Source: Candidatus Methanophagales archaeon (GTDB taxonomy: Archaea; Halobacteriota; Syntropharchaeia; Alkanophagales; Methanospirareceae). From it: a stretch of 64,000 nucleotides of DNA. The DNA lies in NCBI GenBank assembly GCA_030602585.1, contig JAUVZJ010000002.1, positions 3,262 through 67,261 of the forward strand. The letters are read 5' to 3'. The translations under genes and the position numbers were made by a program. The notes beneath the pieces are model-generated. The model searched no databases. It was not told the origin of the DNA and worked only from the letters and a program-made list of their open reading frames with translations. Below are positions 16,626-59,812 of this stretch, one piece after another; within the stretch, counting starts at the first letter, position 1, and every line of letters starts with the position of its first letter.

Positions 16626-16898
16626 TGCTGAAACAACTGTTTTTAAGTGATTGATATGATTGATATTATAAAGATTTAAAACAAAATATGATAGACAAGA
16701 TGGATGAAGTCCTCAACAAATGTAGCACAGTAAAAATTCCAAGTTAAAAAAGTGGAAATAGAATCAGAGGAGTTTTAGAAGGATATGAAATGGGGAGAAG
16801 GGAACTATTCAGATTTGATGAGGAAATATTCTGAGAAATGTGTTGCAATTGTTGATACATTTTCTTAGAAAGAAAAGCTTTTCCGAACAACTTTTTAT

Positions 16899-17165
16899 AT
16901 GAAAAGGTCAAAATCAATAGTAGTGAAAGAAAAGATGGAAAAGAGAATAAAGGCAAAGTTCTTGGAAGGTATTTTTAAGCCCTTAGAAAAGGTGGAACTC
17001 GAAGAGGGGAAAGAAGTTATCGTGACAATAAAAGAGGTTCCTAAAGAAACAAAGGATGCTTTTGAGAAAGCAGCCGGGAGCTGGAAGGGTTTGGTTGATA
17101 CAGAGCGGTTAATCAAAGACATTTACGAGAGTCGAAGAATTAGAGCTCCTGAGGTTAAATTATGA
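16899..17165 (+). CDS. vapB: Type II antitoxin (archaeal AF2212/DUF104-like VapB-type)
   Basis: An 88-aa basic protein (KAKFLEGIFKPLEKVELEEGKEVIVTIKEV). Its stop overlaps the start of the PIN gene in an ATGA pattern. Confidence 0.55.
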   Translation: MKRSKSIVVKEKMEKRIKAKFLEGIFKPLEKVELEEGKEVIVTIKEVPKETKDAFEKAAGSWKGLVDTERLIKDIYESRRIRAPEVKL

Positions 17166-17545
17166 AATATCTCCTTGATACAAGCTGGGTTATTCATTAT
17201 CTACGAGGAGAGGAAAGAGTTGTAAAGAAACTTCTTTCATTAAGAGAAGAAGGATTAGCAGCGAGTATGATCACCCTGGCTGAATTATATGAAGGCGTTT
17301 TCAGGTCTATTAATCCTGTTTTAGCTGAAGAATCACTAAAAGATTTCTTGACGGGAATTTCAATTCTGGGGATGGATGAAGAAGTATGCAAGATTTTTGG
17401 AAGAGAAAGAGCGAGATTGAGAAAGTTAGGAAAACCAATTGGTGATCTTGACCTTCTAATTGCTTCAACCTGTCTTCGTTACGATCTAACACTTCTCACT
17501 GATGACACAAGAGAGTTTGAGAGGGTGGAGAATTTAAAAATTTAA
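17162..17545 (+). CDS. vapC: PIN-domain ribonuclease toxin
   Basis: 127 aa. The N-terminal LLDTSWVIHYL (the first Asp) and the later acidic residues (ITLAELYEG; DLDLLIAS; LLTDD) fit the PIN fold. Confidence 0.8.
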   Translation: MKYLLDTSWVIHYLRGEERVVKKLLSLREEGLAASMITLAELYEGVFRSINPVLAEESLKDFLTGISILGMDEEVCKIFGRERARLRKLGKPIGDLDLLIASTCLRYDLTLLTDDTREFERVENLKI

Positions 17546-17679
17546 GTGAGTGTATCAGTGCAAACTTCCGGTAGATATAGGAGTTGTTCCGATATAAGTT
17601 CCAAGATGTGAACTTAACAAGTCATTTAGGGGGGTAATATGCCATTCCATAATTTTTTATTTTTGCTATATTTATTTGA

Positions 17680-18246
17680 GTGACAAATCAGAATAAAAAT
17701 ACCATGTCCGATGAAGAATACACAAAACTGGAATATTGTATCAAGTATAAAAGTAGTGAGATAAGCAATGAAGATGTTATTCCACTTGTTAAACAGACAA
17801 TTGAAGAGGCAAAAAAGAAAAATCCTGAGAAGGCAAAAGCTCTCGATAACATAGAAATAACAAAAGGGCCGAGTGCTCATATGTTTGATGTGGACTTCGA
17901 CACAATTCTGATAATCGTAGTTGTTCTTAAAGTCTCGCATAGCATATTAAAACCCATAATACTCGAAACATGGCATGAGATAGTGATTCCACTATTGAAA
18001 AGAAAACTGAATATAGAAACGCATGAAGACAATTTAAAAAAGATGGAAGAAAAAATGGAAGAGCCAAAAAAAGAAATAACAAAAGAAATAGCAGATGAGT
18101 TTGACGAAGAAAAAAGAAAAGAAATAGCAGATGAGCTTGACGAAATATTAAAACAAACAATAAAAGATGAATCATTAAGCAAAGATGTCAGAAAATTAGC
18201 AAACGAGATGTTGAATGCAAGTCCTATGAAAAAAGAAAAAACTTAA
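17680..18246 (+). CDS. Hypothetical K/E-rich protein with one hydrophobic segment. A start at the internal Met (MSDEEY) is possible.
   Basis: This is the only long ORF in the AT-rich patch upstream of the HEPN gene. Its C-terminus is low-complexity (EIADEFDEEKRKEIADELDE). Confidence 0.3.
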   Translation: MTNQNKNTMSDEEYTKLEYCIKYKSSEISNEDVIPLVKQTIEEAKKKNPEKAKALDNIEITKGPSAHMFDVDFDTILIIVVVLKVSHSILKPIILETWHEIVIPLLKRKLNIETHEDNLKKMEEKMEEPKKEITKEIADEFDEEKRKEIADELDEILKQTIKDESLSKDVRKLANEMLNASPMKKEKT

Positions 18247-18324
18247 GGTAGAATGTGCAATTGCATTGCACATAAATATTTTCGTTTCTATTATATCAAT
18301 TTCTAATACAGGTTATCGGTTGCC

Positions 18325-18450
18325 ATGACTAACAAATCAATAAAGTGTAAACTGATTGGCATATTAGTAGTTGTGCTATTGGTAGGTTTAATTCTTATGA
18401 TTCCCGTGAATACAATAGAATTTGAAAGTACTTATCAAATTCCAGTGTAA
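18325..18450 (+). CDS. Possible 41-aa single-TM peptide (MTNKSIKCKLIGILVVVLLVGLILMIPVNTIEFESTYQIPV)
   Basis: A short ORF below the 60-aa track cutoff. It has a basic N-terminus and a hydrophobic core. This is speculative. Confidence 0.15.
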   Translation: MTNKSIKCKLIGILVVVLLVGLILMIPVNTIEFESTYQIPV

Positions 18451-18558
18451 TAGAAAAGGAGAAAACTTAGGTTGTTATTTCTCAGACATTTCAATTATGT
18501 AAAACCGAAGATAGATGAAGAATCTCCGCCATTATACACTTATGAGCGATGATTTTTC

Positions 18559-19422
18559 TTAGATTTCGAATAAAATATTCTCCATTTTAGATAGAGTTTT
18601 CTCCATTATTTCAACCAAGTCGTCAAATAACTGTATCAAAGGCTGATTTTTGTTATAAATTTTGAGTGGATCGTGGTTATTATCAGGGTATCTTGTAACA
18701 GTAGCATGAGGAAGCATTATAAAAGAAAGACAATACAAAGAGTAACTAACATACATGCCATTTAAAATTGATTGAATTTCCCTAATCACTTCTTCCCTAC
18801 TCTGCTCTACTAAATTTAAAGTAAGTATTCCTACATCATTTTTCGATTTCTCGAATTTTGGTGGATTGAAACGATGCAAAACATCATAAAGTTCGATATA
18901 AGACTCTTTCTTTTCGATAAAATCTTTCTCTGAAATTTTTATATCCTTTGGATGCACTTTCTGCAATTCTAAGTTGTTCAATTTGCTTATTATTGATCTG
19001 ATTTCGCCTTCTTGAATAAAAAGAATTTCTTCAATTAATTTTTTGTATGCTGCCTCCTCCTCTAAAAATTCAAACACATCCAATAAATTAACTACCCCTT
19101 TGTAATAATTTCCAACATCAAAATCCTTCATGAGTTTAGTCTCTTTTACTTCGGGAACTTTTTTAATTATTGCAATTACCTTTTCTAATTCTTCCCTTTG
19201 TTTTTTAATTGATTTTATGTATATTTTCAAGGGATTATGGAGAGCCTTTTTCGCCTCCCCCTCTTTTATTATTCCAATCACTATAGCCCAAGATTTGTTT
19301 GCCTTCTCAACGCTTTGCTGCAAGTAAAAAACCGCCTGAGGATAGAATTCCTTCTCATACAAACACTTTGCAGCTTCCAAATCCTTTCTTGCTATTTTAA
19401 AAAGGGCTTCAGAAATTTTCAT
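18559..19422 (-). CDS. HEPN-domain protein with a large internal insertion (287 aa)
   Basis: The N-terminus (ARKDLEAAKCLYEKEFYPQAVFYLQQSVEKANKSW) matches the HEPN helix-1/2 consensus. A canonical Rx4-6H motif in RYP context (HATVTRYPDNNHD) lies near residue 240. Confidence 0.5.
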   Translation of the reverse strand: MKISEALFKIARKDLEAAKCLYEKEFYPQAVFYLQQSVEKANKSWAIVIGIIKEGEAKKALHNPLKIYIKSIKKQREELEKVIAIIKKVPEVKETKLMKDFDVGNYYKGVVNLLDVFEFLEEEAAYKKLIEEILFIQEGEIRSIISKLNNLELQKVHPKDIKISEKDFIEKKESYIELYDVLHRFNPPKFEKSKNDVGILTLNLVEQSREEVIREIQSILNGMYVSYSLYCLSFIMLPHATVTRYPDNNHDPLKIYNKNQPLIQLFDDLVEIMEKTLSKMENILFEI

Positions 19423-19839
19423 AGCTCAACCCGTTATTTATGTTAGTTCTTTTAGCTTCCTCTTCTATAAATTTTTTCCTGATCACTGATAAAAATATTC
19501 GAGAGGTTCCTACTGTTGAGATTATTTATATCTGGAAGGGCTCATCACAACTTGAATAAGATATTTTGCGAAATTAGATGCTTATTTTCCGATATAAAGC
19601 CATATTTGGGCTTCTTTTCGTTAAGATTTTGAATTGTGGAACAGCCTCTTAACATACGGAGCCTATGTATATAAAGTTTGCTGGTATTCTTGCTAGAATA
19701 ATAAATATGTCATTTATATCTAATGCTTTTAGTAAGAATGAACAAAAAGCAAGGGTTGTAGGCAAATATCGAAAAATTTATAAGGATTGGATAGCAGAGA
19801 TAAAATTAGCATAAATGAAATTGGAAGGAGGCGATAATA

Positions 19840-19997
19840 ATGGTTGTGATAAAATGCCCAGAGTGTGGGGGAAAACAAGTTTGCCTGAAAGCTATGATGA
19901 AGAAAGATTTGCAGGAGAAGTAAAATGCACAGAATGCGGAGCAAGGTTACTTGTAGGCGTAATAAAGGGGAAAGTAAGATTTGTAGGAATACTATGA
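19840..19997 (+). CDS. Possible small zinc-ribbon protein, but only if a +1 shift near 19921 is read through
   Basis: A 27-aa ORF (MVVIKCPECGGKQVC..., RBS GGAGG 8 nt upstream) carries one CPxCG knuckle. The second knuckle is in the +1 frame. Confidence 0.2.
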
Positions 19998-21411
19998 AGG
20001 AATCACTGCTGGCAGTCATAATTTTAGGATTGGTTTTAGCAAACTCCGTTGCGATAGCTGGTGCATCACCGGATTTAACCGAGACAGGAAAAGACTGGTT
20101 GGCAATGCATGCTGGCAGTGGAACGCCAAAGTGCTATCAAACGTCTGGAATTCCATTCACAGATACCGATGGGTTACCACAAGAAGGATCTACTGGCGAT
20201 GTCGCAGGTATGTTATATATCGCCCATTTTGAGGGTAAAGATGATATGGCCATAACTGGTGATGGCTATAGCTATAACGACTTCAAGGCTGCTAACGAGA
20301 ACAACGATTTGACAGAACCTGATATCAAGTGGGTTTTTGACAATGAGGGTGGAGAAGGTGAACCACAATATTGTATCGGTGTAACACCAACACCCACTCC
20401 TACGCCAACACCAACATCTACTCCAACACTAACCGGGGCGGGAAAAGACTGGCTGGCGACATACGCAGGTGTTGATAATTGTTTTAAGACATCTGGTATA
20501 TCCTATAAAGACGCAGATGGTGTCTCGCATACCGGCGCTCGACCGGCGATGTTGCAAACTCATTATTTGTTGCCCATTTAGTAGGTAAAGATGATGTAGT
20601 AATAACTGCTGATGGTAAGACTTATTCTGATTTCAAAACGGCAAATGGTGGTAATGATTTGACGATAGTAGATGTTGGCTGGGTTTATGATAACGATGGG
20701 GGTGCAGGTGAAGATAAGTATTGCATAGGTGGTACACCAACACCAACACTAACACCGACATCTACTCCAATAATATCCGAAGCTGGAAAAGACTGGCTGG
20801 CGACATACGCAGGTGTTGATAATTGTTTTGCTGCAAGTGGTGTCAGCTTTAAAGACTTGGAAGGGGAAACACACGATGGAGGCACCAGTGCAGTTTGCGC
20901 TATGCTTTACGTAGCCCAAGAAGTAGATGAGAAGGATGCTCCCATCGTTAATTCAAAGACCTATGACGATTTTTATGCTGCGAATGGGAACAATAAAATC
21001 AGCTTAGATGATGTTGGTTGGGTTGCAGACCATGAAAGCGGTGCAGATCAGTATTGTATAGGTGTAACCCTAACACCTACACCAACGCCAACACCGACAT
21101 CTACTCTGACACCTACCCCAACACTAAGCCCAGGGCTTTCTCCAACACCTACACCAACTCAAACACCTTCACCTTCTCCGATTTCTTCTCATTCGCCAAC
21201 ACCAACACTTATAGACTCAGACGGCGATGGAGTACCAGATAGATACGATTATGCACCCTACGATCCGAACATCCAAATAAATGAGGATATTAAACCTGAG
21301 GCTACACCTGAGACTACACCAACACCACAACCACCCGGATTTGAAGTCCTATTCGTAATTGTTGGGTTATTATTAGTGGCATATTTAATCAAGCGAAGAG
21401 AGGTGAAATAA
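19994..21411 (+). CDS. Secreted repeat protein with Thr-Pro linkers and a C-terminal PGF-CTERM archaeosortase sorting signal. As assembled it is interrupted by a frameshift near 20537.
   Basis: The signal peptide is [24 protein letters not shown]. There are three copies of a roughly 110-aa module ([21 protein letters not shown]...GDVA.MLY.A....KDD......Y.DF.AAN.NN.L...D..WV.D...G....YCIG). The C-terminus has [25 protein letters not shown]. The module continues in a different frame between 20538 and 20658. Confidence 0.55.
21064..21182 (+). repeat. Thr-Pro repeat tract ((ACACCN)n). Shorter tracts lie at 20384-20438 and 20744-20770.
   Basis: The tracts encode TPTPTPTPT linkers and are not spacer-separated. 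This is low-complexity coding repeat. Confidence 0.6.
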
Positions 21412-21505
21412 TCACATGCATTGGGTTCACGGATGCCAATGGCAGGAAATATAATGACTGGATACCTGCAATTAGGCAGGAATGACGGTAGGTGGAAATT
21501 GAAAA

Positions 21506-22021
21506 ATGGCAACCCCGGCAAAGCATAAGAAAGGAGCAAAGAAGCATTATAAGTGTGCGATACTCACGATAAGCACCTCTAAATACTGGAAGAAAGAAAA
21601 AGGTGAAGATATATCAGGCGAAACAGCAAAAGAGCTCGTGACGAGAAGCGGGCATGAAGTGGTTTATTACGACGTGGTGCCGGATGAGGAAGGTAAGATA
21701 CATGAAGGCATATCAAAAGCGTTGAACACCGATGCTGATTTCATCATCACCTCCGGCGGAACGGGCTTGACAAAAAGCGACGTTACGATAGAAGTTATAT
21801 CTAAACTCTTGAAAAAAGAGCTACCGGGTTTTGGCGAACTCTTCAGGCAGAAAAGTTACGAGGAAATAGGCACTGCGGCAGTATTAAGCCGTGCGATTGC
21901 CGGTGTGATAAACCAAAAAGCGGTTTTTTGCCTCCCCGGCTCGCCTGATGCGGTTAGATTGGCACTGACCGAGATAATCATGCCTGAGATAGTGCATATA
22001 ATGAAGCACGTGGGGGAATAA
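21506..22021 (+). CDS. moaB: Molybdenum cofactor biosynthesis protein B (MoaB/MogA family)
   Basis: 171 aa. Motifs present: ILTISTS, DADFIITSGGTG.T..D and FCLPGSPDAV. Confidence 0.75.
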   Translation: MATPAKHKKGAKKHYKCAILTISTSKYWKKEKGEDISGETAKELVTRSGHEVVYYDVVPDEEGKIHEGISKALNTDADFIITSGGTGLTKSDVTIEVISKLLKKELPGFGELFRQKSYEEIGTAAVLSRAIAGVINQKAVFCLPGSPDAVRLALTEIIMPEIVHIMKHVGE

Positions 22022-22129
22022 TGTCCTTGTTTCCATGACCTTCATGCAAAAGCGAAAATTGTTATAGGTATATGAATTATCCCCTCTTTCATGGTTATTT
22101 TTTCTGTGTTGGATATTATCACACCATGT

Positions 22130-22603
22130 TTAGATTGGTATCTCGTAATAGCTTTTTTTATCTGACCTTTGCCTTTTTTCCCAATACTCACCTCTACGGG
22201 TATTATTTCTCCCATTCCTGTTTGCTCCTAAGATGGCACAGGGCTCAGCAACATCTTTTATGTTATGCGCTTCCATTGCTGCGCTTTTTGACTGCACGTT
22301 CACACTGTTTATTTCATCTCGTGAAAAGCAAAACAGTGGAATACCAAACTTAGCAGAGACCTCCTGCAACTCATCAGTTTTTTTAAAATCCACCGTGCAT
22401 AAACCTTTAATTTCTTTCTGTTCTATCTCCAATTCCTCTAAGAACCTGCGAATCGTGCTCTCCATCTCCTCCGCTTCAACGCCGCGATGAAATCCGATTC
22501 CGATATAGAGACATCTCCGCTCTTCATTCTTCCACTCAAAGTTTACTATACACCTCCTTAATGGCGATAATGAATGCATCATATTTGATAGATGCTTTGT
22601 CAA
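22130..22603 (-). CDS. cbiG: Cobalamin biosynthesis protein CbiG, C-terminal domain only
   Basis: The CbiG_C pattern is present: LYIGIGFHRGVEAEEMESTIRRFLEEL...KGLCTVDFKKTDE..EVSAKFGIPLFCFSRDEINSV...SKSAAMEAHNIKDVAEPCAILGA. It continues the minus-strand cbi operon after a 3 kb gap. Confidence 0.65.
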   Translation of the reverse strand: MTKHLSNMMHSLSPLRRCIVNFEWKNEERRCLYIGIGFHRGVEAEEMESTIRRFLEELEIEQKEIKGLCTVDFKKTDELQEVSAKFGIPLFCFSRDEINSVNVQSKSAAMEAHNIKDVAEPCAILGANRNGRNNTRRGEYWEKRQRSDKKSYYEIPI

Positions 22604-22870
22604 AAACCTTTTATTAAAAAGAAAAGGTTTATCAAAAGAAACTCTTTTTTAGCGGTTTTCTTTTGTAAACAGCAGAGTCGGGAAATTATTTTCAATCTCT
22701 CCTGCTCTTGTTGAAACTTAAAGGCTCCACTAAGCACAGATTAAATTACAAGTCCAAGACCCAAAAAATATCTCTTCTTACGAAGCATTCAAAAATTAAC
22801 AAAGAGAATCTGTTGTGGATATATTTATTGAACTAACTTCAATCTTCCATTATGTCCAGAACTGAACAAA

Positions 22871-23083
22871 GTGGAGAGTACGAACTTAGACGTAAGGAAG
22901 AACTATGTAAATTTTGTAATAAAAAGTTCAGCCGGGATTCACGGACTGAGAATACATCTGGCATTCGAGAAAAAGAAAGCCTCAAGTCTGAAAGAAGTAT
23001 ATCAAATTAGAGAAGAGATAGCAAGGGTTAAAAGGCGATATAGGGCAATCTTGAACGATTATATGAGAAGAGAGCAATCCTAA
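22871..23083 (+). CDS. Hypothetical 70-aa protein in the cbiG insert
   Basis: An ORF only. An overlapping alternative frame also exists. Confidence 0.15.
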   Translation: MESTNLDVRKNYVNFVIKSSAGIHGLRIHLAFEKKKASSLKEVYQIREEIARVKRRYRAILNDYMRREQS

Positions 23084-23510
23084 AATATGCTATCAACTCT
23101 CACCCACCTACAACACAAAAGTCCGAAACATCTAACCAAAAAACGACCAGTTAACAAGTCTATAAGAAAAGTTTTATCAAAAACGCTTCGCAATCGGTGG
23201 GGTAAGGTTGGGAAGTGGTGGAGAGGTGTAGTAGAATTGGAATAATGCGAAGTTTTATTATAGTGGATGTGTAGAAATAGATGTATGGCTATGCTAAGGC
23301 AGATAGAAGAAGGGGATACAAAGGGAGAGATTATTATTCCGAAGGATAAGTTTAAGGAGTTTGTGGAGGTTCAATTAAAACGTACCAAATTAAATTTTAT
23401 AAGTATATAAAAGAAACTTCTGAAAGAAGCGCTATAAAAAATCGGATAAATACGGGGTATGTGACTTTAAATTAACAAAAAGTTATAGTTGGCAATAGAG
23501 AGAAGAATAA

Positions 23511-24713
23511 ATGGTTGATGGGAAACGGATTCAGTTAAAAAACGAAGACATTAAGAAGTTCATTCAAGCGTATATCTTGGAATATAGAACGTTTTTAGAA
23601 GAAAATTATCCCCAGAGCAAAAACGATTTTCCTTTGTACGCCGGTTATCCTTTTGACGTAAAAGCATATGTAAGCGAGAAATCTACACTTATTGTATACA
23701 AATATAATGCACCTTCGCTAAGAATCGAAGTTGTTGAAGTTAACAGTGTGCCAGACCGGAAAACCGTACAAGAAAATGCTATTCAAGGATATTCAAGTGC
23801 ATATCTCTCGCGTATAATAAACAAGCCTCAAGATGTTGCTAGAAAGGACATTTTGGCTTATGAGGCGCATGAGAAGGAGTATGAGGAGCAACAGGAATAT
23901 TATGAGCAGTTAGATGCAGAAGCTGAAGTAGATGCAACAATAAATCATTATTTGAATTATTTGGAATCAGCTTACAATGTTAAAAAGAAAACTTCTGAGG
24001 AAAAGAGGAACGAGATTTATAGTGCTATAAAGCTGGTTTATGAGCGTATGGATTATTATGATGCATATTTAAGGACAGGATGCGATACCCTTTTTCTGGT
24101 GATGTTTGAACTCAACGCGGATATCGAATCATCGATTTTTTTGAGTATCCACGGCAAGTATAGACCTGCAAATGCTTTACTGCGACGATGGTTGGAAACA
24201 ACTATTCATTCATTATATTTTGATTTCGAGTTGAAAAGGTATAATAAAAACACTAAAACATATGAGTCCACTCTTAAAAAACGTAATAACTGGCTTAAAA
24301 AACCACGTCATATTCGCTTTACTGGCGATGACTTTAGTATATTAGCCATACTAATAGACCCAGATACAGACTATATCGCCACGCAATTACTGAAGGAAAC
24401 AACTTCTTATTTTAGCGAACAATCTTTTAGAAGATATGTTGAGAATCTTTATAGAAATCTATCTAAATATGTTCATTATGGTGGAATGATTCCATCTGAG
24501 GATGAACTACTACTTGAGTTTGCTGAATACAATGAGAAACTTTTTAGAGAATGGTATGTAAAATTGAATCGGATTAATGAAATTTGTAATATTCTCACCC
24601 TTTTGAAATTTCCAGAAATGCTCACTCTCTATGAGGAATATAAAGAAGAAAGATTTCCTACTTTGAAAGAGAAACAAATGCGAAAATTAAAAGAATTGCT
24701 AAAAATTAAATGA
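23511..24713 (+). CDS. Hypothetical 400-aa alpha-helical protein of unrecognised family, with a possible HEPN-like R-x6-H (RRWLETTIH)
   Basis: A long ORF with AT-rich codon usage, sitting in the insert between the cbiG halves. I recognise no catalytic signature beyond a weak Rx6H. Confidence 0.45.
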   Translation: MVDGKRIQLKNEDIKKFIQAYILEYRTFLEENYPQSKNDFPLYAGYPFDVKAYVSEKSTLIVYKYNAPSLRIEVVEVNSVPDRKTVQENAIQGYSSAYLSRIINKPQDVARKDILAYEAHEKEYEEQQEYYEQLDAEAEVDATINHYLNYLESAYNVKKKTSEEKRNEIYSAIKLVYERMDYYDAYLRTGCDTLFLVMFELNADIESSIFLSIHGKYRPANALLRRWLETTIHSLYFDFELKRYNKNTKTYESTLKKRNNWLKKPRHIRFTGDDFSILAILIDPDTDYIATQLLKETTSYFSEQSFRRYVENLYRNLSKYVHYGGMIPSEDELLLEFAEYNEKLFREWYVKLNRINEICNILTLLKFPEMLTLYEEYKEERFPTLKEKQMRKLKELLKIK

Positions 24714-24879
24714 TATTTCAATTGGATTACGTGGATGCTACATTTTTCAAAATGGTGTGGCACGGACGGGACTTAAGCGTTTAGAGGAATAATGCGGGGT
24801 GGATAGGTTATGGCTTTGGATCGTAGAGACCTTCAACCTTTATATGTAGAGAAAACAAATAATAATCAGTGATAATATT

Positions 24880-25110
24880 ATGAATGACATGGAATGGTTT
24901 AAGGAGCATTTGGCTCAATTAAGAGAAAAGTATGAGTCGAAACTGGTAGCCGTCTTAGATGGTGCGATAATTGCGATAGGCGATGACCTCGAGGAAGTAG
25001 CAAGAATAATCGAAAGAAAAAAGAGAACTGGTGAAATAAAGGGAACACCTTATACGGGTAGAGTGGGTGATGATATCGCAGCAGTGCATGTTCCATCGGT
25101 GTATGTCTGA
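24880..25110 (+). CDS. DUF5678-like small protein (partner of retropepsin-like protease)
   Basis: 76 aa. The sequence MEWFKEHLAQLREKYESKLVAVLDGAIIAIGDDLEEVARII matches the archaeal DUF5678 pattern. It ends 4 nt before the next gene. Confidence 0.45.
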   Translation: MNDMEWFKEHLAQLREKYESKLVAVLDGAIIAIGDDLEEVARIIERKKRTGEIKGTPYTGRVGDDIAAVHVPSVYV

Positions 25111-25113
25111 GGA

Positions 25114-25533
25114 TTGATTCCCATGTCAGATTTTTGCTTTGAGAACAACTATCCGATGGTGAGAATTTTTGTCGTTAAAGAAAAGGTATCAGTTCCAGTT
25201 TGGGTTATCATAGATACTGGTTCGCCATATACAATTATTCCAAATAACATACTAAATAAACTTGGATTGGGAAACGGAGATATAATCACAAAGATTACGA
25301 TTCATGGTGTGATACGTAAAAAAGAGTGTGCAGTTGAAGCCTCGGCATATCTGCTTGAAATACGAATTGGTGAAAAATCATTGGAAAAAATGCTCGTTGT
25401 TGGATACGATTTCGATCCGAGGCTTGGATTGCTTGGGCACAACGCACTGGTAAATTTTCAGCTTTTTGTGGATTGGCGTGAAAAGAGGATCGAGCTTCGT
25501 GAGGTTTCTTCAAAAATTATTTCAAACATTTAA
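25114..25533 (+). CDS. Retropepsin-like (clan AA) aspartic protease
   Basis: 139 aa. The hydrophobic-hydrophobic-DTGS motif (VWVIIDTGSPYTIIP) and a second-half GLLGHNAL..F match the retroviral-type aspartyl protease fold. Confidence 0.6.
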   Translation: MIPMSDFCFENNYPMVRIFVVKEKVSVPVWVIIDTGSPYTIIPNNILNKLGLGNGDIITKITIHGVIRKKECAVEASAYLLEIRIGEKSLEKMLVVGYDFDPRLGLLGHNALVNFQLFVDWREKRIELREVSSKIISNI

Positions 25534-25556
25534 TTCTCGGATTCCATGAGTTTATT

Positions 25557-25964
25557 CTAAGGTGATGCAGGAGCGGGCCACTCCGAAGTTGTTATCACCG
25601 CCTGTGCTGATATACCCTCTGCAATGAGCTTCGAGAATTCATTCGCACCTCTATGCCCGTTCAGCACGGGTATAACATAGTTCCCATTCTCATCTATGCA
25701 GACTACCCAGGGGTCTTCGGTCTTTTTCTTCGGCTCTATTGCCCTCACAACCACACCCAAAGGGAGAACGGCAACGATGTTCTTCTTCTCTTTGAAACTT
25801 TCTCTTATCGCCCTGTAAACGCTTTTCACCTTTTCATCTGCGCTGTCGCACGAAATTTCTTCCGAGCATATCAGCTCTGCATCGAATCCTTCGTCTAAAA
25901 GCACGCTTTTCACCTTTTCGGCAATTGCAACTGATTTTTGAGCAAGTGAGAATATGGCAATCAT
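25557..25964 (-). CDS. cbiG: CbiG N-terminal plus middle domains
   Basis: The N-domain IAIFSLAQKSVAIAEKV is followed by the mid-domain motifs LGVVVRAIEP...DPWVVCIDENGNYVIPVLNGHRGANEF..AVITTSEW. It overlaps cbiF by 4 nt. Confidence 0.65.
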   Translation of the reverse strand: MIAIFSLAQKSVAIAEKVKSVLLDEGFDAELICSEEISCDSADEKVKSVYRAIRESFKEKKNIVAVLPLGVVVRAIEPKKKTEDPWVVCIDENGNYVIPVLNGHRGANEFSKLIAEGISAQAVITTSEWPAPASP

Positions 25965-26689
25965 TTTTCACCTCCACCATACAATTTTGAAACACCTGAT
26001 TTTTCAAGCACGTCCCCTACGATTATCACGGATTGGCTCTTTATGCCCGCATTCTTCACTTTCTCGGCTATGTCCGCTAAAGTGCCTCTTATTATCCTCT
26101 CTTCCATCCATGACGCTTTATGAACCACAGCAACGGGTGTATCGGGCGGATAGCCAAACCTCAGCTCTGAAACGACGTCGTCAATGAGATGAACGCCAAG
26201 AAAGACTATCATTGTCGCTCTGTGCTCGGAAAGTTCTTTTATACTTTCTCCTGCCGGCTTACCTGTTTTCCCAAACGGTTTCGTGATTATCAGCGTTTGC
26301 GATACGTCTGGCGAAGTGAGTTCCCTTTTCAGGGATGCAGAAGCGGCAGAGAAAGAAGTAACTCCGGGAACAACTTCAAACGGTATATTTTTTGACTGGA
26401 GGAACTCTATCTGTTCTTGAATGGCGGAATAGAAGCTCAAATCGCCAGAATGAAGCCTTACCACTTTCTTTCCCGCATTTACAAATTTATCGAAAAGTGC
26501 GAAAATATCGTCTCTGGTCTTTCCATGACTGTCTATCAGTACCGCATCTCCCTTTGCATATTTTAAAACATCTTTATGGACAAGAGAACCCGCATATATG
26601 ATCACATCGGCACTTTCTATTTCACGCTTTCCTCTGAGGGTGAGCAATTCGGGATCGCCCGGTCCTGCACCTACAAATACTACTTTCAT
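25961..26689 (-). CDS. cbiF: Precorrin-4 C11-methyltransferase (CbiF/CobM). A CbiH-type class III methyltransferase is not excluded.
   Basis: Motifs present: VGAGPGDPELLTLRG...ADVIIYAGSLV and VRLHSGDLSFYSAIQEQIEFL. Length is 242 aa. Confidence 0.65.
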   Translation of the reverse strand: MKVVFVGAGPGDPELLTLRGKREIESADVIIYAGSLVHKDVLKYAKGDAVLIDSHGKTRDDIFALFDKFVNAGKKVVRLHSGDLSFYSAIQEQIEFLQSKNIPFEVVPGVTSFSAASASLKRELTSPDVSQTLIITKPFGKTGKPAGESIKELSEHRATMIVFLGVHLIDDVVSELRFGYPPDTPVAVVHKASWMEERIIRGTLADIAEKVKNAGIKSQSVIIVGDVLEKSGVSKLYGGGEK

Positions 26690-27393
26690 TTCTCCTTCTC
26701 CTCCTTCTTTACAATAAGAGTGGAGAGGTAATGAGTTGGTTGTTTTAATTCAGTGAGTTTTCCCAGAACCATTTCTTGATCCTCGAATCCAATCTTAACA
26801 CCCAAAATGGCTTTTTTATTAGCCAGCATATTTTTGATCTCGTCTATATTTTTTGGTTTGAGGAAGATCAAGGAATCGGAATTTTGTATTACTCGAAGGG
26901 CATTATCATTACCTTTTATATCAGGGATTATGGAAACGATTTCATTCCCCTCTGCAATAGGCACTTTAGCCAGAGCGGAACATGCGGAAAGAGATGTTAC
27001 ACCAGGTATGATTTCCACTTCTTCCACTTCGTCTTTAAAGAAGTCCAAAAATTTGTAGAATGTGGAATATAAACTTGGGTCTCCCAGGGTGATGAATGCA
27101 ACTGATTCACATCCCTTCCCTTTTTCCAGCACTTCCTCTCTCGCCTTTTCCCAATAGAAGTCTAATTTCGCCTGGTCTTTCGTCATCGGGAACACCGGTT
27201 CAACAACAATGAGCTCGTTTTCCCTTTCTTTTATAATTCTTTCAACGGTGAGGAGAGCCAAACTCCTTTTACCCTCTCTCGAACTCGGAGCAACTATCAT
27301 ATCCACTTCCCTAAGTGTCTTATATGCTTTCAGCGTTAGCAGCTCCGGGTCACCGGGTCCTACACCTATTCCATACAGCTTGCCGATATTCAT
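26686..27393 (-). CDS. cbiL: Cobalt-factor II / precorrin-2 C20-methyltransferase
   Basis: Motifs present: LYGIGVGPGDPELLTLKA, ITLGDPSLYST and IIPGVTS. Confidence 0.75.
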   Translation of the reverse strand: MNIGKLYGIGVGPGDPELLTLKAYKTLREVDMIVAPSSREGKRSLALLTVERIIKERENELIVVEPVFPMTKDQAKLDFYWEKAREEVLEKGKGCESVAFITLGDPSLYSTFYKFLDFFKDEVEEVEIIPGVTSLSACSALAKVPIAEGNEIVSIIPDIKGNDNALRVIQNSDSLIFLKPKNIDEIKNMLANKKAILGVKIGFEDQEMVLGKLTELKQPTHYLSTLIVKKEEKEK

Positions 27394-27977
27394 TTCTTGT
27401 CTCCGTAGATCAGAAATACAGGATAAGAAGGTGCGAGTGCAGTTTTTCCTCCTAAGTCCTTCCCTTTGTTCAAGCAGATATTCAGAACATCCGGATTGAT
27501 ACCTCTGCTTTTCAATACTTTTATGGCTTCCACCACCGTTTCAAGCCTGACTGCGGCTATGATAATTCTCCCCCCTTTCTTCAAGTGCTTGAACACGTTG
27601 TCAAACGATCTGTCAAGGTTATCCGTGCCGCCGAAAAAGATGACGTCAAAGCTATGTGATAGATTCACATCTTCCATTTTTCCAATTGCAAGTTCTATTT
27701 TATCTACCAGTCCAAATTTTTCTATGTTCTTTCTCGCAATTTCAAAATTCTCTTCGTCCTTTTCCACCGCCGTAACGTCGCAACCTAACCTCGCGAATTC
27801 GATAGATACGCTTCCTGAACCCGTGCCAACGTCTAAAATACGCTCCACTCCTTTTATTCTCGCTTTTGATACGATAATCGAGCGGATTTCTTCTCTCGTC
27901 AAGCCTGCTTTCGACCGCAAGAAGAGGTCGTCGGATATTCCCGAACTTTTATAATTCCATTCTTTCTCTACCGCCAT
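27390..27977 (-). CDS. cbiT: Cobalt-precorrin-6B C15-methyltransferase (decarboxylating)
   Basis: The SAM-binding motif ILDVGTGSGSVSIEFARLG.DVTAVEKDEE is present. Length is 195 aa. Confidence 0.8.
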   Translation of the reverse strand: MAVEKEWNYKSSGISDDLFLRSKAGLTREEIRSIIVSKARIKGVERILDVGTGSGSVSIEFARLGCDVTAVEKDEENFEIARKNIEKFGLVDKIELAIGKMEDVNLSHSFDVIFFGGTDNLDRSFDNVFKHLKKGGRIIIAAVRLETVVEAIKVLKSRGINPDVLNICLNKGKDLGGKTALAPSYPVFLIYGDKK

Positions 27978-28888
27978 AGATTATCCCTCATTACTTTTAA
28001 CAGCTCTTCAACGCTCTTTGGCGGCATTCCCGGGTTTTCACTCGCCATCATCTCGATACCTTTGTATATCTTCAACACCCTGGGCATGGCAAGTCTGCTC
28101 GACTTGATAACCGCCTCATCACCTAATACCGCGTATGGCTCACCGGATTTTACGATTTCACCCTCCCTCATAACCATCACCCTATCTGCCCACTCATAGG
28201 CAAGTTCGACATCATGAGTCGCTGCTAAAACACTCATATTGTCATTCTGTTCGCATAGGCTATCAATGGTGTTTAGCAAATCTTCTGAACTTTCAGGGTC
28301 TAATCCGGACGTAGGCTCGTCTAAAACTAATATATTGGGTTCCATAGCCAGGACTCCTGCGATAGCCACCTTTTTCTTTTCTCCTTCACTTAATTCATGT
28401 GCCTTCCTATCCCTCAAGTCCTCAATATTGATCTCGTTTAGTGCTCTCTTCACCCTCTCTTTCACTTCACCCTCTGTCAACCCAAGATTCACCGGACCCA
28501 GCGCTACGTCCTGAAACACGATTGGAGCCACAATCTGATCATTAGGATTCTGAAATACTATTCCCACACGCTTTCTCACTTCGGTAAGGGCTTTTTTATT
28601 ATAGCTGAGGAAAGTACCTGATATATTAATCTTTCCCTTATCAGGTGTTAACAATCCGTTTAGGTGGAGTAATAGGGTCGTTTTCCCAGCTCCGGTACTC
28701 CCCACGAGCGCGGTCTTATCTCCTCTTTTTAGCTTCATATCCACGCCCTTAAGCACCCATTTCTTCTTATCGTATGAAAACCATAAGTCCTGAACCTCCA
28801 CCATATTCTCAGCATCCCTTTTTATATCCTCCTCGTCCTTATGCGCTCTCATATCACGCTCCCCCCTACTGCCATAACGAGTAAACAA
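27968..28888 (-). CDS. cbiO: Cobalt ECF/ABC transporter ATPase
   Basis: Walker A (GSTGAGKTT), signature (LSEGEKKKVAIAGVLA) and Walker B (ILVLDEPTSGLD) are all present. Confidence 0.8.
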   Translation of the reverse strand: MFTRYGSRGERDMRAHKDEEDIKRDAENMVEVQDLWFSYDKKKWVLKGVDMKLKRGDKTALVGSTGAGKTTLLLHLNGLLTPDKGKINISGTFLSYNKKALTEVRKRVGIVFQNPNDQIVAPIVFQDVALGPVNLGLTEGEVKERVKRALNEINIEDLRDRKAHELSEGEKKKVAIAGVLAMEPNILVLDEPTSGLDPESSEDLLNTIDSLCEQNDNMSVLAATHDVELAYEWADRVMVMREGEIVKSGEPYAVLGDEAVIKSSRLAMPRVLKIYKGIEMMASENPGMPPKSVEELLKVMRDNLWR

Positions 28889-29643
28889 GCATCAAATAGA
28901 ATCATGAGAATGAGAGAAGGCGAAATAATGTGGACTTTGTTCTCGCTTTCGTTTTTTATTCCAAGCTTTAAAGAAGGCATTTTACCCGCATAACAGCGGG
29001 CTTCTAAGGCTCGCTCCATATTTTGTGCTTTCTCAAGTGACCTTACGAGCATAGCGGAAAGAAGAAGGCTTAAAGATTTTATCCTGTTCCCCCGTAAATA
29101 ACCCAAACGTGCATCTTGTGCTTTCTTCGTGCTTTCCATCTCTTCTATCAGCACAAAAATTAATTTATATACCATAAAAGAAAGTTCCACTACTATCTCT
29201 GGCATCCGGAACTTCTTCATCGTATCCAACATTTCCGCTATTGGCGTGGTCATAATCAGGAAAAAGAGGCATGAAATCCCGGTCATTGACCTCATCATCA
29301 ATAAAGCACCTAATTCCAAACCTTCTCTCATCATGGCTAAATGCATCCCTATTATGGAAAAGGTAAGCACTGGCTCGGAGCCCCGTAAAAAAGCTAAAAC
29401 TAATATAGAAGGTAGTAAAAAGGTTAAGGGTATCGTCATTAGTTCCAAATAGTGTTTGATTCTTACACCACTCCAGATAGTTATGCAGGACATTGTGAAG
29501 AGGATGAGAAGCAATAGAAAGAGCGACTGGGTATAGACTGCAATAATAAGCGTAAAGATAGAGAAAAATATTTTATCGCCAGTTCTTATGTTTACAAGCT
29601 TATTTGAGACGGTGTAGCCCTCTAAGGTATGATGTAGAGACAT
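28849..29643 (-). CDS. cbiQ: Cobalt ECF transporter T component
   Basis: A polytopic membrane protein with the ARxxG-like motif (AQDARLGYLRG), sitting between cbiN and cbiO. Confidence 0.75.
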   Translation of the reverse strand: MSLHHTLEGYTVSNKLVNIRTGDKIFFSIFTLIIAVYTQSLFLLLLILFTMSCITIWSGVRIKHYLELMTIPLTFLLPSILVLAFLRGSEPVLTFSIIGMHLAMMREGLELGALLMMRSMTGISCLFFLIMTTPIAEMLDTMKKFRMPEIVVELSFMVYKLIFVLIEEMESTKKAQDARLGYLRGNRIKSLSLLLSAMLVRSLEKAQNMERALEARCYAGKMPSLKLGIKNESENKVHIISPSLILMILFDACLLVMAVGGSVI

Positions 29644-29931
29644 TTATTTCTCACTCTCTTTTCTGCCCTTCAACAATCCGAAATAGTAGCCTATTATTAG
29701 CGAACCGATAGCTGCTTGAAGAGCAAAGAGGAGAGATTCAATTTCTCCACTCGGCGGCTCCCAGATAGGATTCACCCAGGGCTCGTAGTCTAAACTTTGC
29801 GCTATCAGCTCCATTCCTTGACCATCTGCGCCACCCCACTCTGCTTTTGGAATTGCTGTCGTCAGAGCAAGCAAAGAGAAGAAAGAAAACGCAAGCACGA
29901 CTGCAAGGATTGTTGTGACCTCAAACTTCAC
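29644..29931 (-). CDS. cbiN: Cobalt transport protein CbiN
   Basis: 95 aa with two TM segments and the EWGGADGQG motif. Confidence 0.8.
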   Translation of the reverse strand: MKFEVTTILAVVLAFSFFSLLALTTAIPKAEWGGADGQGMELIAQSLDYEPWVNPIWEPPSGEIESLLFALQAAIGSLIIGYYFGLLKGRKESEK

Positions 29932-30595
29932 TTCCGCTCACCCCCTTCGGTTGCCACGTCTCCACTGCCACTCCGTGTTCTTGTAAAAGCCTCAACACCA
30001 ATGCCACCGTTATGCCCTCTACAATGGCAAGCGGGACCTGCGTGACTGCAAATATGCCAAAGAAAGCTTCAAAAGAGAGTAAGATACCCCCTTTCGTTGC
30101 AGGAAACGCCGCCGCCAACTGCCCGGCGGTAACCACATAAGTCACTAAGTCGGCAAAGAAAGCCGCTACAAATCCCGAAGTCAGAAGTCCCGCTTTCATT
30201 TTTCTCACTACTATATAAGCCAGCCAGCCAATAACCGGTCCTACTATGCCCATTGAGACCGTGTTTGCACCCAACGTTGTTATCCCTCCATGTGCTAATA
30301 ACAGTGCCTGGAAGAGCAACACAATGATTGATAAGAAAGCGGTAATGCTCGGTCCAAACAATACCACTCCCAAGCCTGTTCCAGTGGGGTGAGAGCAACT
30401 CCCGGTGACCGAAGGCAGTTTCAGAGCGGAGAGTACGAAAATGAAAGCTGCAGTGACAGCCAATAATGGCATTACTCCCTGTCCCCTTTCCCGCAACTTC
30501 TTTGCTCTGTAAATTCCGTAAGCCACTATCGGAACAGCAATTGCATACCACACCACACACCACTCAAGCGGCAAAAAGCCCTCTGCTATATGCAT
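29921..30595 (-). CDS. cbiM: Cobalt transport protein CbiM
   Basis: The MHIAEGFLP N-terminus is the hallmark of CbiM/NikM. It is a polytopic membrane protein. Confidence 0.85.
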   Translation of the reverse strand: MHIAEGFLPLEWCVVWYAIAVPIVAYGIYRAKKLRERGQGVMPLLAVTAAFIFVLSALKLPSVTGSCSHPTGTGLGVVLFGPSITAFLSIIVLLFQALLLAHGGITTLGANTVSMGIVGPVIGWLAYIVVRKMKAGLLTSGFVAAFFADLVTYVVTAGQLAAAFPATKGGILLSFEAFFGIFAVTQVPLAIVEGITVALVLRLLQEHGVAVETWQPKGVSGSEV

Positions 30596-59738: not shown

Positions 59739-59812
59739 GGGGTCGTGGCCTAGTCCGGGAGGGCAGCGGGCTCCAGACTCGCCGATCGTGCGTTCAAATC
59801 GCACCGACCCCA
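59739..59812 (+). tRNA. tRNA-Trp (anticodon CCA), intronless
   Basis: I folded this manually. The acceptor pairs GGGGTCG with CGACCCC. The D-arm is GCCT..GGGC. The anticodon stem pairs GCGGG with CTCGC. The loop is CUCCAGA. The T-arm is GTGCG-TTCAAAT-CGCAC. Confidence 0.75.

Follow-up and report, generated by a model that had tools for sequence, protein, structure and literature searches.

A two-gene cbiG with a variable gene islet between its halves in a Methanophagales (ANME-1) archaeon

CbiG is the cobalt-precorrin-5A hydrolase of anaerobic corrin synthesis, and the canonical protein has about 330 amino acids (aa). We analysed the cbiG locus in a stretch of 64,000 nucleotides (nt) from Candidatus Methanophagales archaeon (assembly GCA_030602585.1, contig JAUVZJ010000002.1, positions 3,262 to 67,261), here called the window; its source is an ANME-1 (Methanophagales) archaeon. 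In the window, matches to the N-terminal (CbiG_N) and C-terminal (CbiG_C) domains of the enzyme lie in two minus-strand open reading frames (ORFs), and an islet of DNA with opposite-strand ORFs lies between them. An earlier note on this DNA, made from the letters alone, had proposed that a foreign element was inserted into or between the parts of cbiG. The features of the locus are as follows, where handles such as L017 denote contigs from relatives or near-identical strains and GC is the fraction of guanine plus cytosine.

25557-25964, minus strand: cbiG_N, 135 aa; Pfam CbiG_N (PF11760), E=1.6e-23, 82.9 bits against a cut-off of 25
25506-25556, no strand: conserved stretch 3' of cbiG_N that bounds the variable region on the left; blastn homology reaches 25506 (L020) and 25528 (L017)
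25114-25533, plus strand: ORF for a retropepsin-like (clan AA) aspartyl protease, 139 aa from a TTG or 136 aa from the ATG at 25123
24880-25110, plus strand: DUF5678 ORF, 76 aa; Pfam DUF5678, E=1.4e-6; stops 3 nt 5' of the protease ORF
22701-24767, plus strand: strain-specific cargo, GC 0.344; replaced by 0.7 kb in L017 and by 4.0 kb in L020
23511-24713, plus strand: 400-aa orphan protein with an N-terminal alpha/beta domain, then mostly helical
22852-23010 (52 aa) and 22871-23083 (70 aa), plus strand: overlapping ORFs, a frameshifted CxxC...H..H zinc-finger remnant (low confidence)
22537-22700, minus strand: AT-rich, conserved, non-coding leader of cbiG_C, GC 0.30; right edge of the variable region
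22130-22603, minus strand: CbiG_C ORF, 157 aa from a TTG; Pfam PF01890, E=4.2e-21
22214-22527, minus strand: cbiG_C remnant, with the native ATG (22527-22525) out of frame and core codons 7-104 kept
22130-22213, minus strand: unrelated read-through sequence giving the aberrant tail 'GRNNTRRGEYWEKRQRSDKKSYYEIPI', about 28 codons

The minus-strand genes upstream of cbiG run in the order cbiM-N-Q-O-T-L-F, a reading of the earlier note that was borne out by Pfam calls on L013, a contig 99.7% identical to the window. The ORFs at 25961-26689 and 26686-27393 match TP_methylase (Pfam); cbiF lies directly upstream of cbiG_N, and its stop shares 4 nt with the cbiG_N ATG. With 91% aa identity to its counterpart in L017, cbiG_N reads as an intact stand-alone gene. 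The half at 25557-25964 had been described as 'N+mid'; the N domain was confirmed, and CbiG_mid (PF11761) matched neither half in Pfam at E<=0.01. The C half placed at 22130-22603 does match CbiG_C, with homology confined to the part from the native ATG at 22527 to 22214-22222. On the short CbiG model NF005441 (263 positions), the N half aligns to positions 2-129 and the C half to 134-234. The halves are contiguous on this model; nothing is missing at the junction, a point that the earlier note had proposed to check, and the CbiG of this lineage is mid-less and encoded by two genes. Downstream of the window's cbiG_C lies a convergent MoaB-like gene (21506-22021).

Homologs of each half were then compared across relatives. 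The N-half homologs (n=112) all carried CbiG_N only and, fragments apart, had about 128-150 aa with 75-95% identity; those with names were Methanophagales or ANME-1. All C-half homologs (n=74, the window's own ORF excluded) carried CbiG_C only, in about 125-145 aa; nearly all named relatives were Methanophagales, and one was labelled Methanocellales. No fused cbiG occurred among the 112 N-half and 74 C-half homologs. The relatives showed the gene order cbiT-cbiL-cbiF-cbiG_N-cbiG_C-cbiH(C)-cbiD, with typical native sizes of about 130 aa for cbiG_N and about 126 aa for cbiG_C. The two genes overlapped by 14 nt in L001 and L018 and by 20 nt in L002-L005; they were 57 nt apart in L006-L008 and 10-70 nt apart in L025, L030, L031, L033, L034, L037, L039, L042 and L043. 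Empty sites, which the earlier note had suggested looking for in related genomes, are therefore present, and these insert-free relatives still have two cbiG genes with separate stops and starts. The window's cbiG_N ends in 'SEWPAPASP', and 135-aa relatives share this type of tail (e.g. 'SESPSPTSP', 'LEEPHPTSP'), which indicates that the stop codon in the window is native. Since the halves stand alone and lie adjacent in relatives, the split is an ancestral state, and the insert did not cause it. These comparisons indicate that two polypeptides, which the earlier note had raised as one outcome, are the native state of CbiG in the Methanophagales lineage. In L038 (1464-2600), cbiF and cbiG_N formed a single 378-aa ORF, a fusion, followed by opposite-strand surface-protein-like genes in place of cbiG_C.

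No sign of a discrete mobile element was detected in the window's insert. Searches of Pfam, NCBIfam and PHROG identified no transposase or integrase for any ORF in 22604-25556. Terminal inverted repeats and target-site duplications, for which the earlier note had proposed a search at about 22604 and 25556, were not found, and no such repeats or attachment (att) repeats paired the islet ends. The islet had no match in phage and plasmid collections (DNA and protein) or in IMG/VR, and no transfer RNA (tRNA) gene lies near it, the only one in the window being at 59739. We weighed these results together with the gene comparison against the explanation that a foreign mobile element cut a formerly single cbiG into N(+mid) and C halves. 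Lower-GC DNA with opposite-strand ORFs does sit exactly between the domain-coding parts, and many relatives lack it, but no fused relative exists among the 112 and 74 homologs, insert-free relatives keep two genes, the window's cbiG_N has the native 135-aa-type tail and stop, the lineage lacks the mid domain, and neither transposase or integrase nor inverted repeats or target duplication accompany the insert. We therefore regard this explanation as extremely improbable. In addition, two pieces of the DNA between the halves, the DUF5678/protease module and the leader of cbiG_C, are common to relatives at the same site. What stands of the insertion proposal is that the DNA is absent from many relatives; its counter-case, separate native genes with the same intervening genes, is largely what was found, in that the genes are separate and part only of the intervening DNA is shared.

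We estimate a probability of roughly 0.8 that cbiG is natively a mid-less two-gene locus in this lineage, that its junction is a recurrent site of gene exchange, and that the window holds a layered islet beside a damaged, probably defunct cbiG_C. The feature is an ordinary kind of thing, a lineage-native two-gene cbiG with a variable islet site. Compared with canonical CbiG, the window halves match CbiG_N and CbiG_C and hold the canonical place after cbiF, and the CbiG_C of relatives aligns to residues 206-314 of PDB 3EEQ, the solved CbiG homolog of Sulfolobus. Unlike canonical CbiG, the ANME-1 lineage lacks the mid domain and has two genes in every relative examined; the window's C-domain gene lacks the conserved last 22 codons and the native start frame, and no cbiH follows it. 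ANME-1 cbiG is thus best annotated as a native two-gene enzyme and not as one broken by insertion, which corrects a tempting mis-annotation. When completeness of cobamide synthesis is called in uncultured methane oxidisers, CbiG_N-only and CbiG_C-only genes should count as normal.

The junction between cbiG_N and cbiG_C appeared, by comparison of contigs, to be a recurrent site of gene gain and exchange. At least 10 distinct configurations were found there in relatives, mostly of opposite-strand low-GC genes. In L017 (a 57-kb JGI contig, the same contig as L023), which gave the best comparison, window 27991-25528 aligned at 89.7% and 22696-22214 at 93.4%; the filling of L017/L023 is 896 nt with a DUF5678 gene, and 706 nt of its own DNA lie between the blocks aligned to the window. 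L020-L022 aligned to window 27000-25506 and 22700-22214, and additionally to 25153-24768 at 95.9%. The other fillings of the site were as follows.

L020-L022: 4.65 kb comprising a DUF5678 gene and, within the 4.0 kb that replaces window 22701-24767, two radical-SAM genes and a fragment of a Y1 transposase
L028: 5.5 kb with the Hachiman-like candidate PDC-M23A/B (E=8e-85 and 0) and fragments of rve and HsdS
L040: 4.66 kb with a split superfamily 1 (SF1) helicase-nuclease matching Mokosh models (MkoC-like, 4.6e-50)
L044, L024: a ribbon-helix-helix (RHH)-like ORF
L010, L011: HicA (4.6e-13) and a HicB-like partner
L019: a DDE transposase upstream of cbiG_C
L009, L036, L038: unrelated genes

In L028 (3141-7117), the two-gene PDC-M23A/B with its HamB-like helicase is complete and is flanked by the rve and type I HsdS fragments.

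Zhou et al. (2026, Nat Commun, PMC13385816) report that ANME-1 genomes contain hot spots of high variability with many defence and hicAB genes. In the available portion of that article, cobalamin is not mentioned and the cbiG locus is not described; its 28 'cbi' matches are genome-bin names. The cbiG site resembles the hot spots described there in that one core-gene site holds differing low-GC cargo, which in relatives includes HicAB, PDC-M23, Mokosh-like and restriction genes and insertion sequence (IS) fragments. It differs from what that portion describes in lying inside a biosynthetic operon, between the halves of one enzyme. One recently reported kind of ANME-1 hot spot is thereby pinned to a precise and recognisable site inside such an operon, and the cbiG_N/cbiG_C junction offers a convenient source of uncharacterised archaeal candidates for defence and toxin-antitoxin (TA) genes.

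The window's islet measures about 2.95 kb, counted from the stop of cbiG_N (25557) to the native ATG of cbiG_C (22527). On alignment it resolved into three layers, whose borders were taken from the blastn end points of the window against L017 and L020 (also L022). The first layer, beside cbiG_N, is older and common to relatives, and holds the pair of DUF5678 and retropepsin-like protease genes (24768-25505). The second layer is 2.07 kb of strain-specific cargo with the 400-aa orphan and the decayed zinc-finger ORF, and the third is the AT-rich conserved leader of cbiG_C (22537-22700). GC was 0.353 in the interval between the cbiG halves, 0.344 in the strain-specific cargo and 0.433 in the cbi operon, in agreement with the lower-GC insert of the earlier note. 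That note had counted four plus-strand ORFs; three alone look like genes (400, 76 and 139 aa), and the fourth looks like a frameshifted remnant. A conceptual fusion of the 52-aa and 70-aa ORFs reads CKFCNKKFS..GIHGLRIH and matches zf-BED at E=0.001, below the cut-off.

The protease ORF is convergent with cbiG_N and carries a DTGS motif. Its family matches in Pfam (gag-asp_proteas 1.6e-5, Asp_protease_2 1.4e-4) and NCBIfam (TIGR03698 1.7e-4) were weak, all falling under the curated cut-offs. In PADLOC, it matched component B of the candidate system PDC-M08 from end to end of the profile (E=3.8e-6), and the DUF5678 ORF matched no PADLOC model. DUF5678 is presumed to be an antitoxin-like partner of the protease. 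The two genes lie side by side in another metagenome-assembled genome (MAG), under the consecutive accessions MGB2843115.1 and MGB2843116.1. Window 24768-25153 has 95.9% nt identity to L020 5415-5800 at the same site; in L020-L022, window 25154-25505 (the protease interior) is deleted and both ORF ends are left. In L017, a diverged DUF5678 gene (32% aa identity) occupies the same site on the opposite strand. The window pair resembles type II TA cassettes in that its two small genes, for DUF5678 (76 aa) and for the protease (136-139 aa), point the same way, lie 3 nt apart and recur together, and resembles PDC-M08 in the match to component B. It is unlike both type II TA cassettes and PDC-M08 in that its DUF5678 has no counterpart among the PADLOC models, and unlike known defence systems in that the window's own cargo gave no strong PADLOC match. 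Our literature search found no documented TA function for DUF5678 or the protease family, the sole paper naming DUF5678 being unrelated, and nothing relevant on split CbiG, DUF5678 or PDC-M08.

Outside the window, the cargo at 22701-24767 turned up only in L012 and L013, two near-identical contigs, and always at this site. The 400-aa protein it encodes has 61 close homologs without a Pfam domain and 220 representative clusters; one example of the family, in Methanoperedens, lies between housekeeping genes. An AlphaFold2 model of the protein had a mean predicted local distance difference test (pLDDT) score of 86.8, a confident value, and Foldseek matched it to nothing in PDB or BFVD. Profile searching of the PDB sequences also returned nothing, no Pfam, NCBIfam, PADLOC or PHROG family matched at meaningful E-values, and no relatives were found in IMG/VR or in phage and plasmid collections. 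The sole recurring signal was to DUF5677, which 3 of 22 members and 2 of 10 distant relatives hit below threshold, so that the protein is possibly DUF5677-like. A defence or TA role is suggested for it by analogy with its neighbours and with the same-site fillings of relatives. Many distant relatives in this family have 240-270 aa and match the C-terminal half alone. The accession of DUF5677 (PF18928) adjoins that of DUF5678 (PF18929), the family of the neighbouring gene. A HEPN Rx4-6H motif in the 400-aa protein was considered and rejected, the His not being conserved in the family alignment. A 41-aa upstream ORF showed no conservation with its counterpart in the Methanoperedens locus.

The lack of a transposase, end repeats, a nearby tRNA or a phage or plasmid match favours turnover of the islet by recombination in its flanks. 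Exchange of islets at this site would proceed through recombination between conserved flanking sequences, together with occasional IS activity of the kind seen in relatives, and a single transposition event is an unlikely origin.

Two copies of a 19-nt direct repeat were found inside the islet.

22619-22637, plus strand: copy 1, AAGAAAAGGTTTATCAAAA, also one arm of the palindrome 22597-22637
23164-23182, plus strand: copy 2, AAGAAAAGTTTTATCAAAA

The repeat, AAGAAAAG[G/T]TTTATCAAAA, has 2 matches in 64 kb against 0.03 expected and is internal to the islet. Two independent Logan contigs break within 1-2 nt of its copies, L012 beginning at 22620 and L013 running to 23163; these breaks may reflect population heterogeneity or recombination. 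The decayed zinc-finger ORF lies in the 545 bp between the copies. In a more far-reaching interpretation, the junction would be a lineage-wide, semi-specific site of integration and exchange in ANME-1, at which DUF5678 (with or without the protease) and the palindromic leader anchor swaps of defence cassettes, with the AAGAAAAGKTTTATCAAAA 19-nt repeat as a possible recombination site; the 400-aa protein and the DUF5678/protease pair would be uncharacterised archaeal defence or TA genes, and CbiG_C would be dispensable. We consider this extension rather unlikely. If it were true, these archaea could make corrins without the CbiG_C domain, as the decay of cbiG_C in more than one lineage (truncated here, core-deleted in L027 and L029) would then show.

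The leader of cbiG_C is conserved like the coding flanks, with 91-93% nt identity to L017, L020 and L022 and partial conservation in L019. It contains an imperfect palindrome (22597-22637) around the TATA-like TTTTTAATAAAAGG, an ATGATG at 22582-22577, and a Shine-Dalgarno (SD)-like AGGAGGTG at 22551-22558, 22 nt 5' of the native ATG at 22527. An Rfam search of 18000-30000 (E<=0.1) returned nothing, so no known riboswitch or small RNA accounts for the conserved leader. The leader would supply the promoter of a cbiG_C-cbiHC-cbiD unit in this clade, and for this reason opposite-strand insertions upstream of it would be tolerated. A short upstream reading frame, 'MMHSLSPLRRCIV...' (window 22537-22603, minus strand), shows DNA-level conservation among the window, L017 and L019. 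In L019, the TGA of this frame overlaps the cbiG_C ATG, making translational coupling possible, and in the window a 2-nt insertion joins it in frame to the CbiG_C domain.

We next describe the damage to the window's cbiG_C. Homology of the C half begins at the native ATG (22527-22525) and not at the TTG at 22603. DNA alignment with L017, L019, L006 and L001 showed a 2-nt insertion (about 22505-22510) after codon 5; the window reads 'GAGATGTCTCTATATC', against 'GAGAAG--(T/C)CTA(T/C)AT(C/A)' in relatives (GAGAAG--TCTATATC in L017 and L001). The native ATG would therefore give a 29-aa peptide in the window, and the ATGATG upstream is the only start from which the frame of the domain stays open. 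At the other end, homology to every relative stops at 22214-22222, in codon 103-104 of 126 (blastn and alignment), and local alignment of the 220 nt past this breakpoint scored no better than shuffled sequence. The lost last 22 codons, 'FKFVKRKSFDRKITLAVVF', are among the most conserved in the family, with R113, S115, F116, D117, T121, L122, A123 and V125 each at least 90% conserved in the family alignment. Coverage of the Pfam CbiG_C profile was 1-100 of 117 positions in the window versus 2-116 of 117 in the intact L017 gene. A rearrangement with its breakpoint at 22214-22222 would have removed the last 22 codons together with cbiHC and cbiD; cbiH, cbiC and cbiD were not found within the 64-kb window, though they lie 3' of cbiG_C in relatives. 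The results suggest that the window's cbiG_C is most likely a non-functional remnant. Inactivation, which the earlier note had considered for CbiG as a whole, is thus a real possibility for the C half, with its 2-nt insertion and lost tail, while the N half is intact.

A different Methanophagales lineage has lost the core of cbiG_C (L027:1409-1521 and L029:1203-1297), and a remnant, 'MKCKIKFVKRKSFNRKKITLAAVLK', consisting of the start and the last approximately 22 codons, lies between cbiG_N and cbiHC. The deletion end point in L027/L029 (codon ~103-105) is within about 5 nt of the window breakpoint, with an estimated chance of roughly 3%. The truncation of cbiG_C here and the loss of its core in another lineage raise the question of whether the CobE-like C-terminal domain is needed for the anaerobic pathway.

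Several observations weigh against our reading of the locus, and two of its rivals draw on them. The dN/dS ratio (nonsynonymous to synonymous substitution rates) of the kept cbiG_C core was 0.24 against L017 and 0.21 against L020, compared with 0.09-0.25 for the neighbouring cbi genes. Because the core is no higher than its neighbours, there is no signal of relaxed selection, and either the damage is recent or cbiG_C still works from the in-frame ATGATG at 22582. A functional gene would give 150 aa from this start, longer by 24 aa at the N-terminus and with another tail at the C-terminus, and cbiH, cbiC and cbiD would lie elsewhere in the genome. The frame is open over 22582-22130, the core motifs are intact and the dN/dS resembles that of working neighbours; yet the new tail costs eight positions conserved at 90% or more and 17 Pfam profile positions, the ATGATG lies upstream of the SD-like AGGAGGTG, and pairwise dN/dS is blind to recent inactivation. 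We judge it unlikely that cbiG_C functions.

The assembly itself provides a further point against a damaged cbiG_C. No second assembly retrieved spans 22300-22619, which holds the 2-nt insertion and connects the truncated 3' part with the islet; of two Logan contigs from one run, one ends at 22299 and the other begins at 22620, with a gap of 320 nt between them, and the 150-aa ORF is present on the NCBI MAG contig only. The contig may therefore be mis-joined across the conserved core. The window would then be a chimera, in which the real islet continues into an intact cbiG_C-cbiHC-cbiD and the truncated fragment by the MoaB-like gene is a separate partial copy or belongs to another strain; several ANME-1 strains do co-occur, e.g. 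L013 at 99.7% identity. Against this, the truncated 3' junction was recovered at 100% identity in a second assembly, the Logan contig L016 (window 20800-22299), so a damaged cbiG_C copy exists in any case; the cbiG_N-side junction is likewise present in L012 and L013. Moreover, no intact CbiG_C with the window-specific substitutions was found in a collection of 5.8 billion proteins that includes those Logan assemblies, the best match being 88%. We consider a chimera improbable, and even if the contig is mis-joined, the truncated copy exists in the population and the native split and the hot-spot islet are unaffected.

The remaining points against our reading of a layered islet at an exchange site concern how it works and what it carries. 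Exchange through the flanks is a likely mechanism that we infer, as is the promoter role of the leader. A defence or TA nature of the window's cargo is weakly suggested by the matches to PDC-M08B (3.8e-6) and DUF5678 (1.4e-6) and by analogy.

Further variable regions were observed near cbiG. A second site, between cbiHC and cbiD, holds 7.6 kb in L001 (12160-19823; the same in L018), with an MmeI-like restriction-modification gene and a PLD/SNF2-helicase gene, and in L017 (13177-13836) holds an RHH gene and a 102-aa ORF. In the window, 16700-19800 has low GC (0.29-0.34) and contains a PIN-domain gene (17162-17545) and a HEPN-domain gene (18559-19422), and 19925-21411 encodes two threonine/proline-linker surface proteins, one with a PGF-CTERM motif. 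Window 16700-21411 is another variable, TA-rich region, beside the cbiG_C breakpoint.

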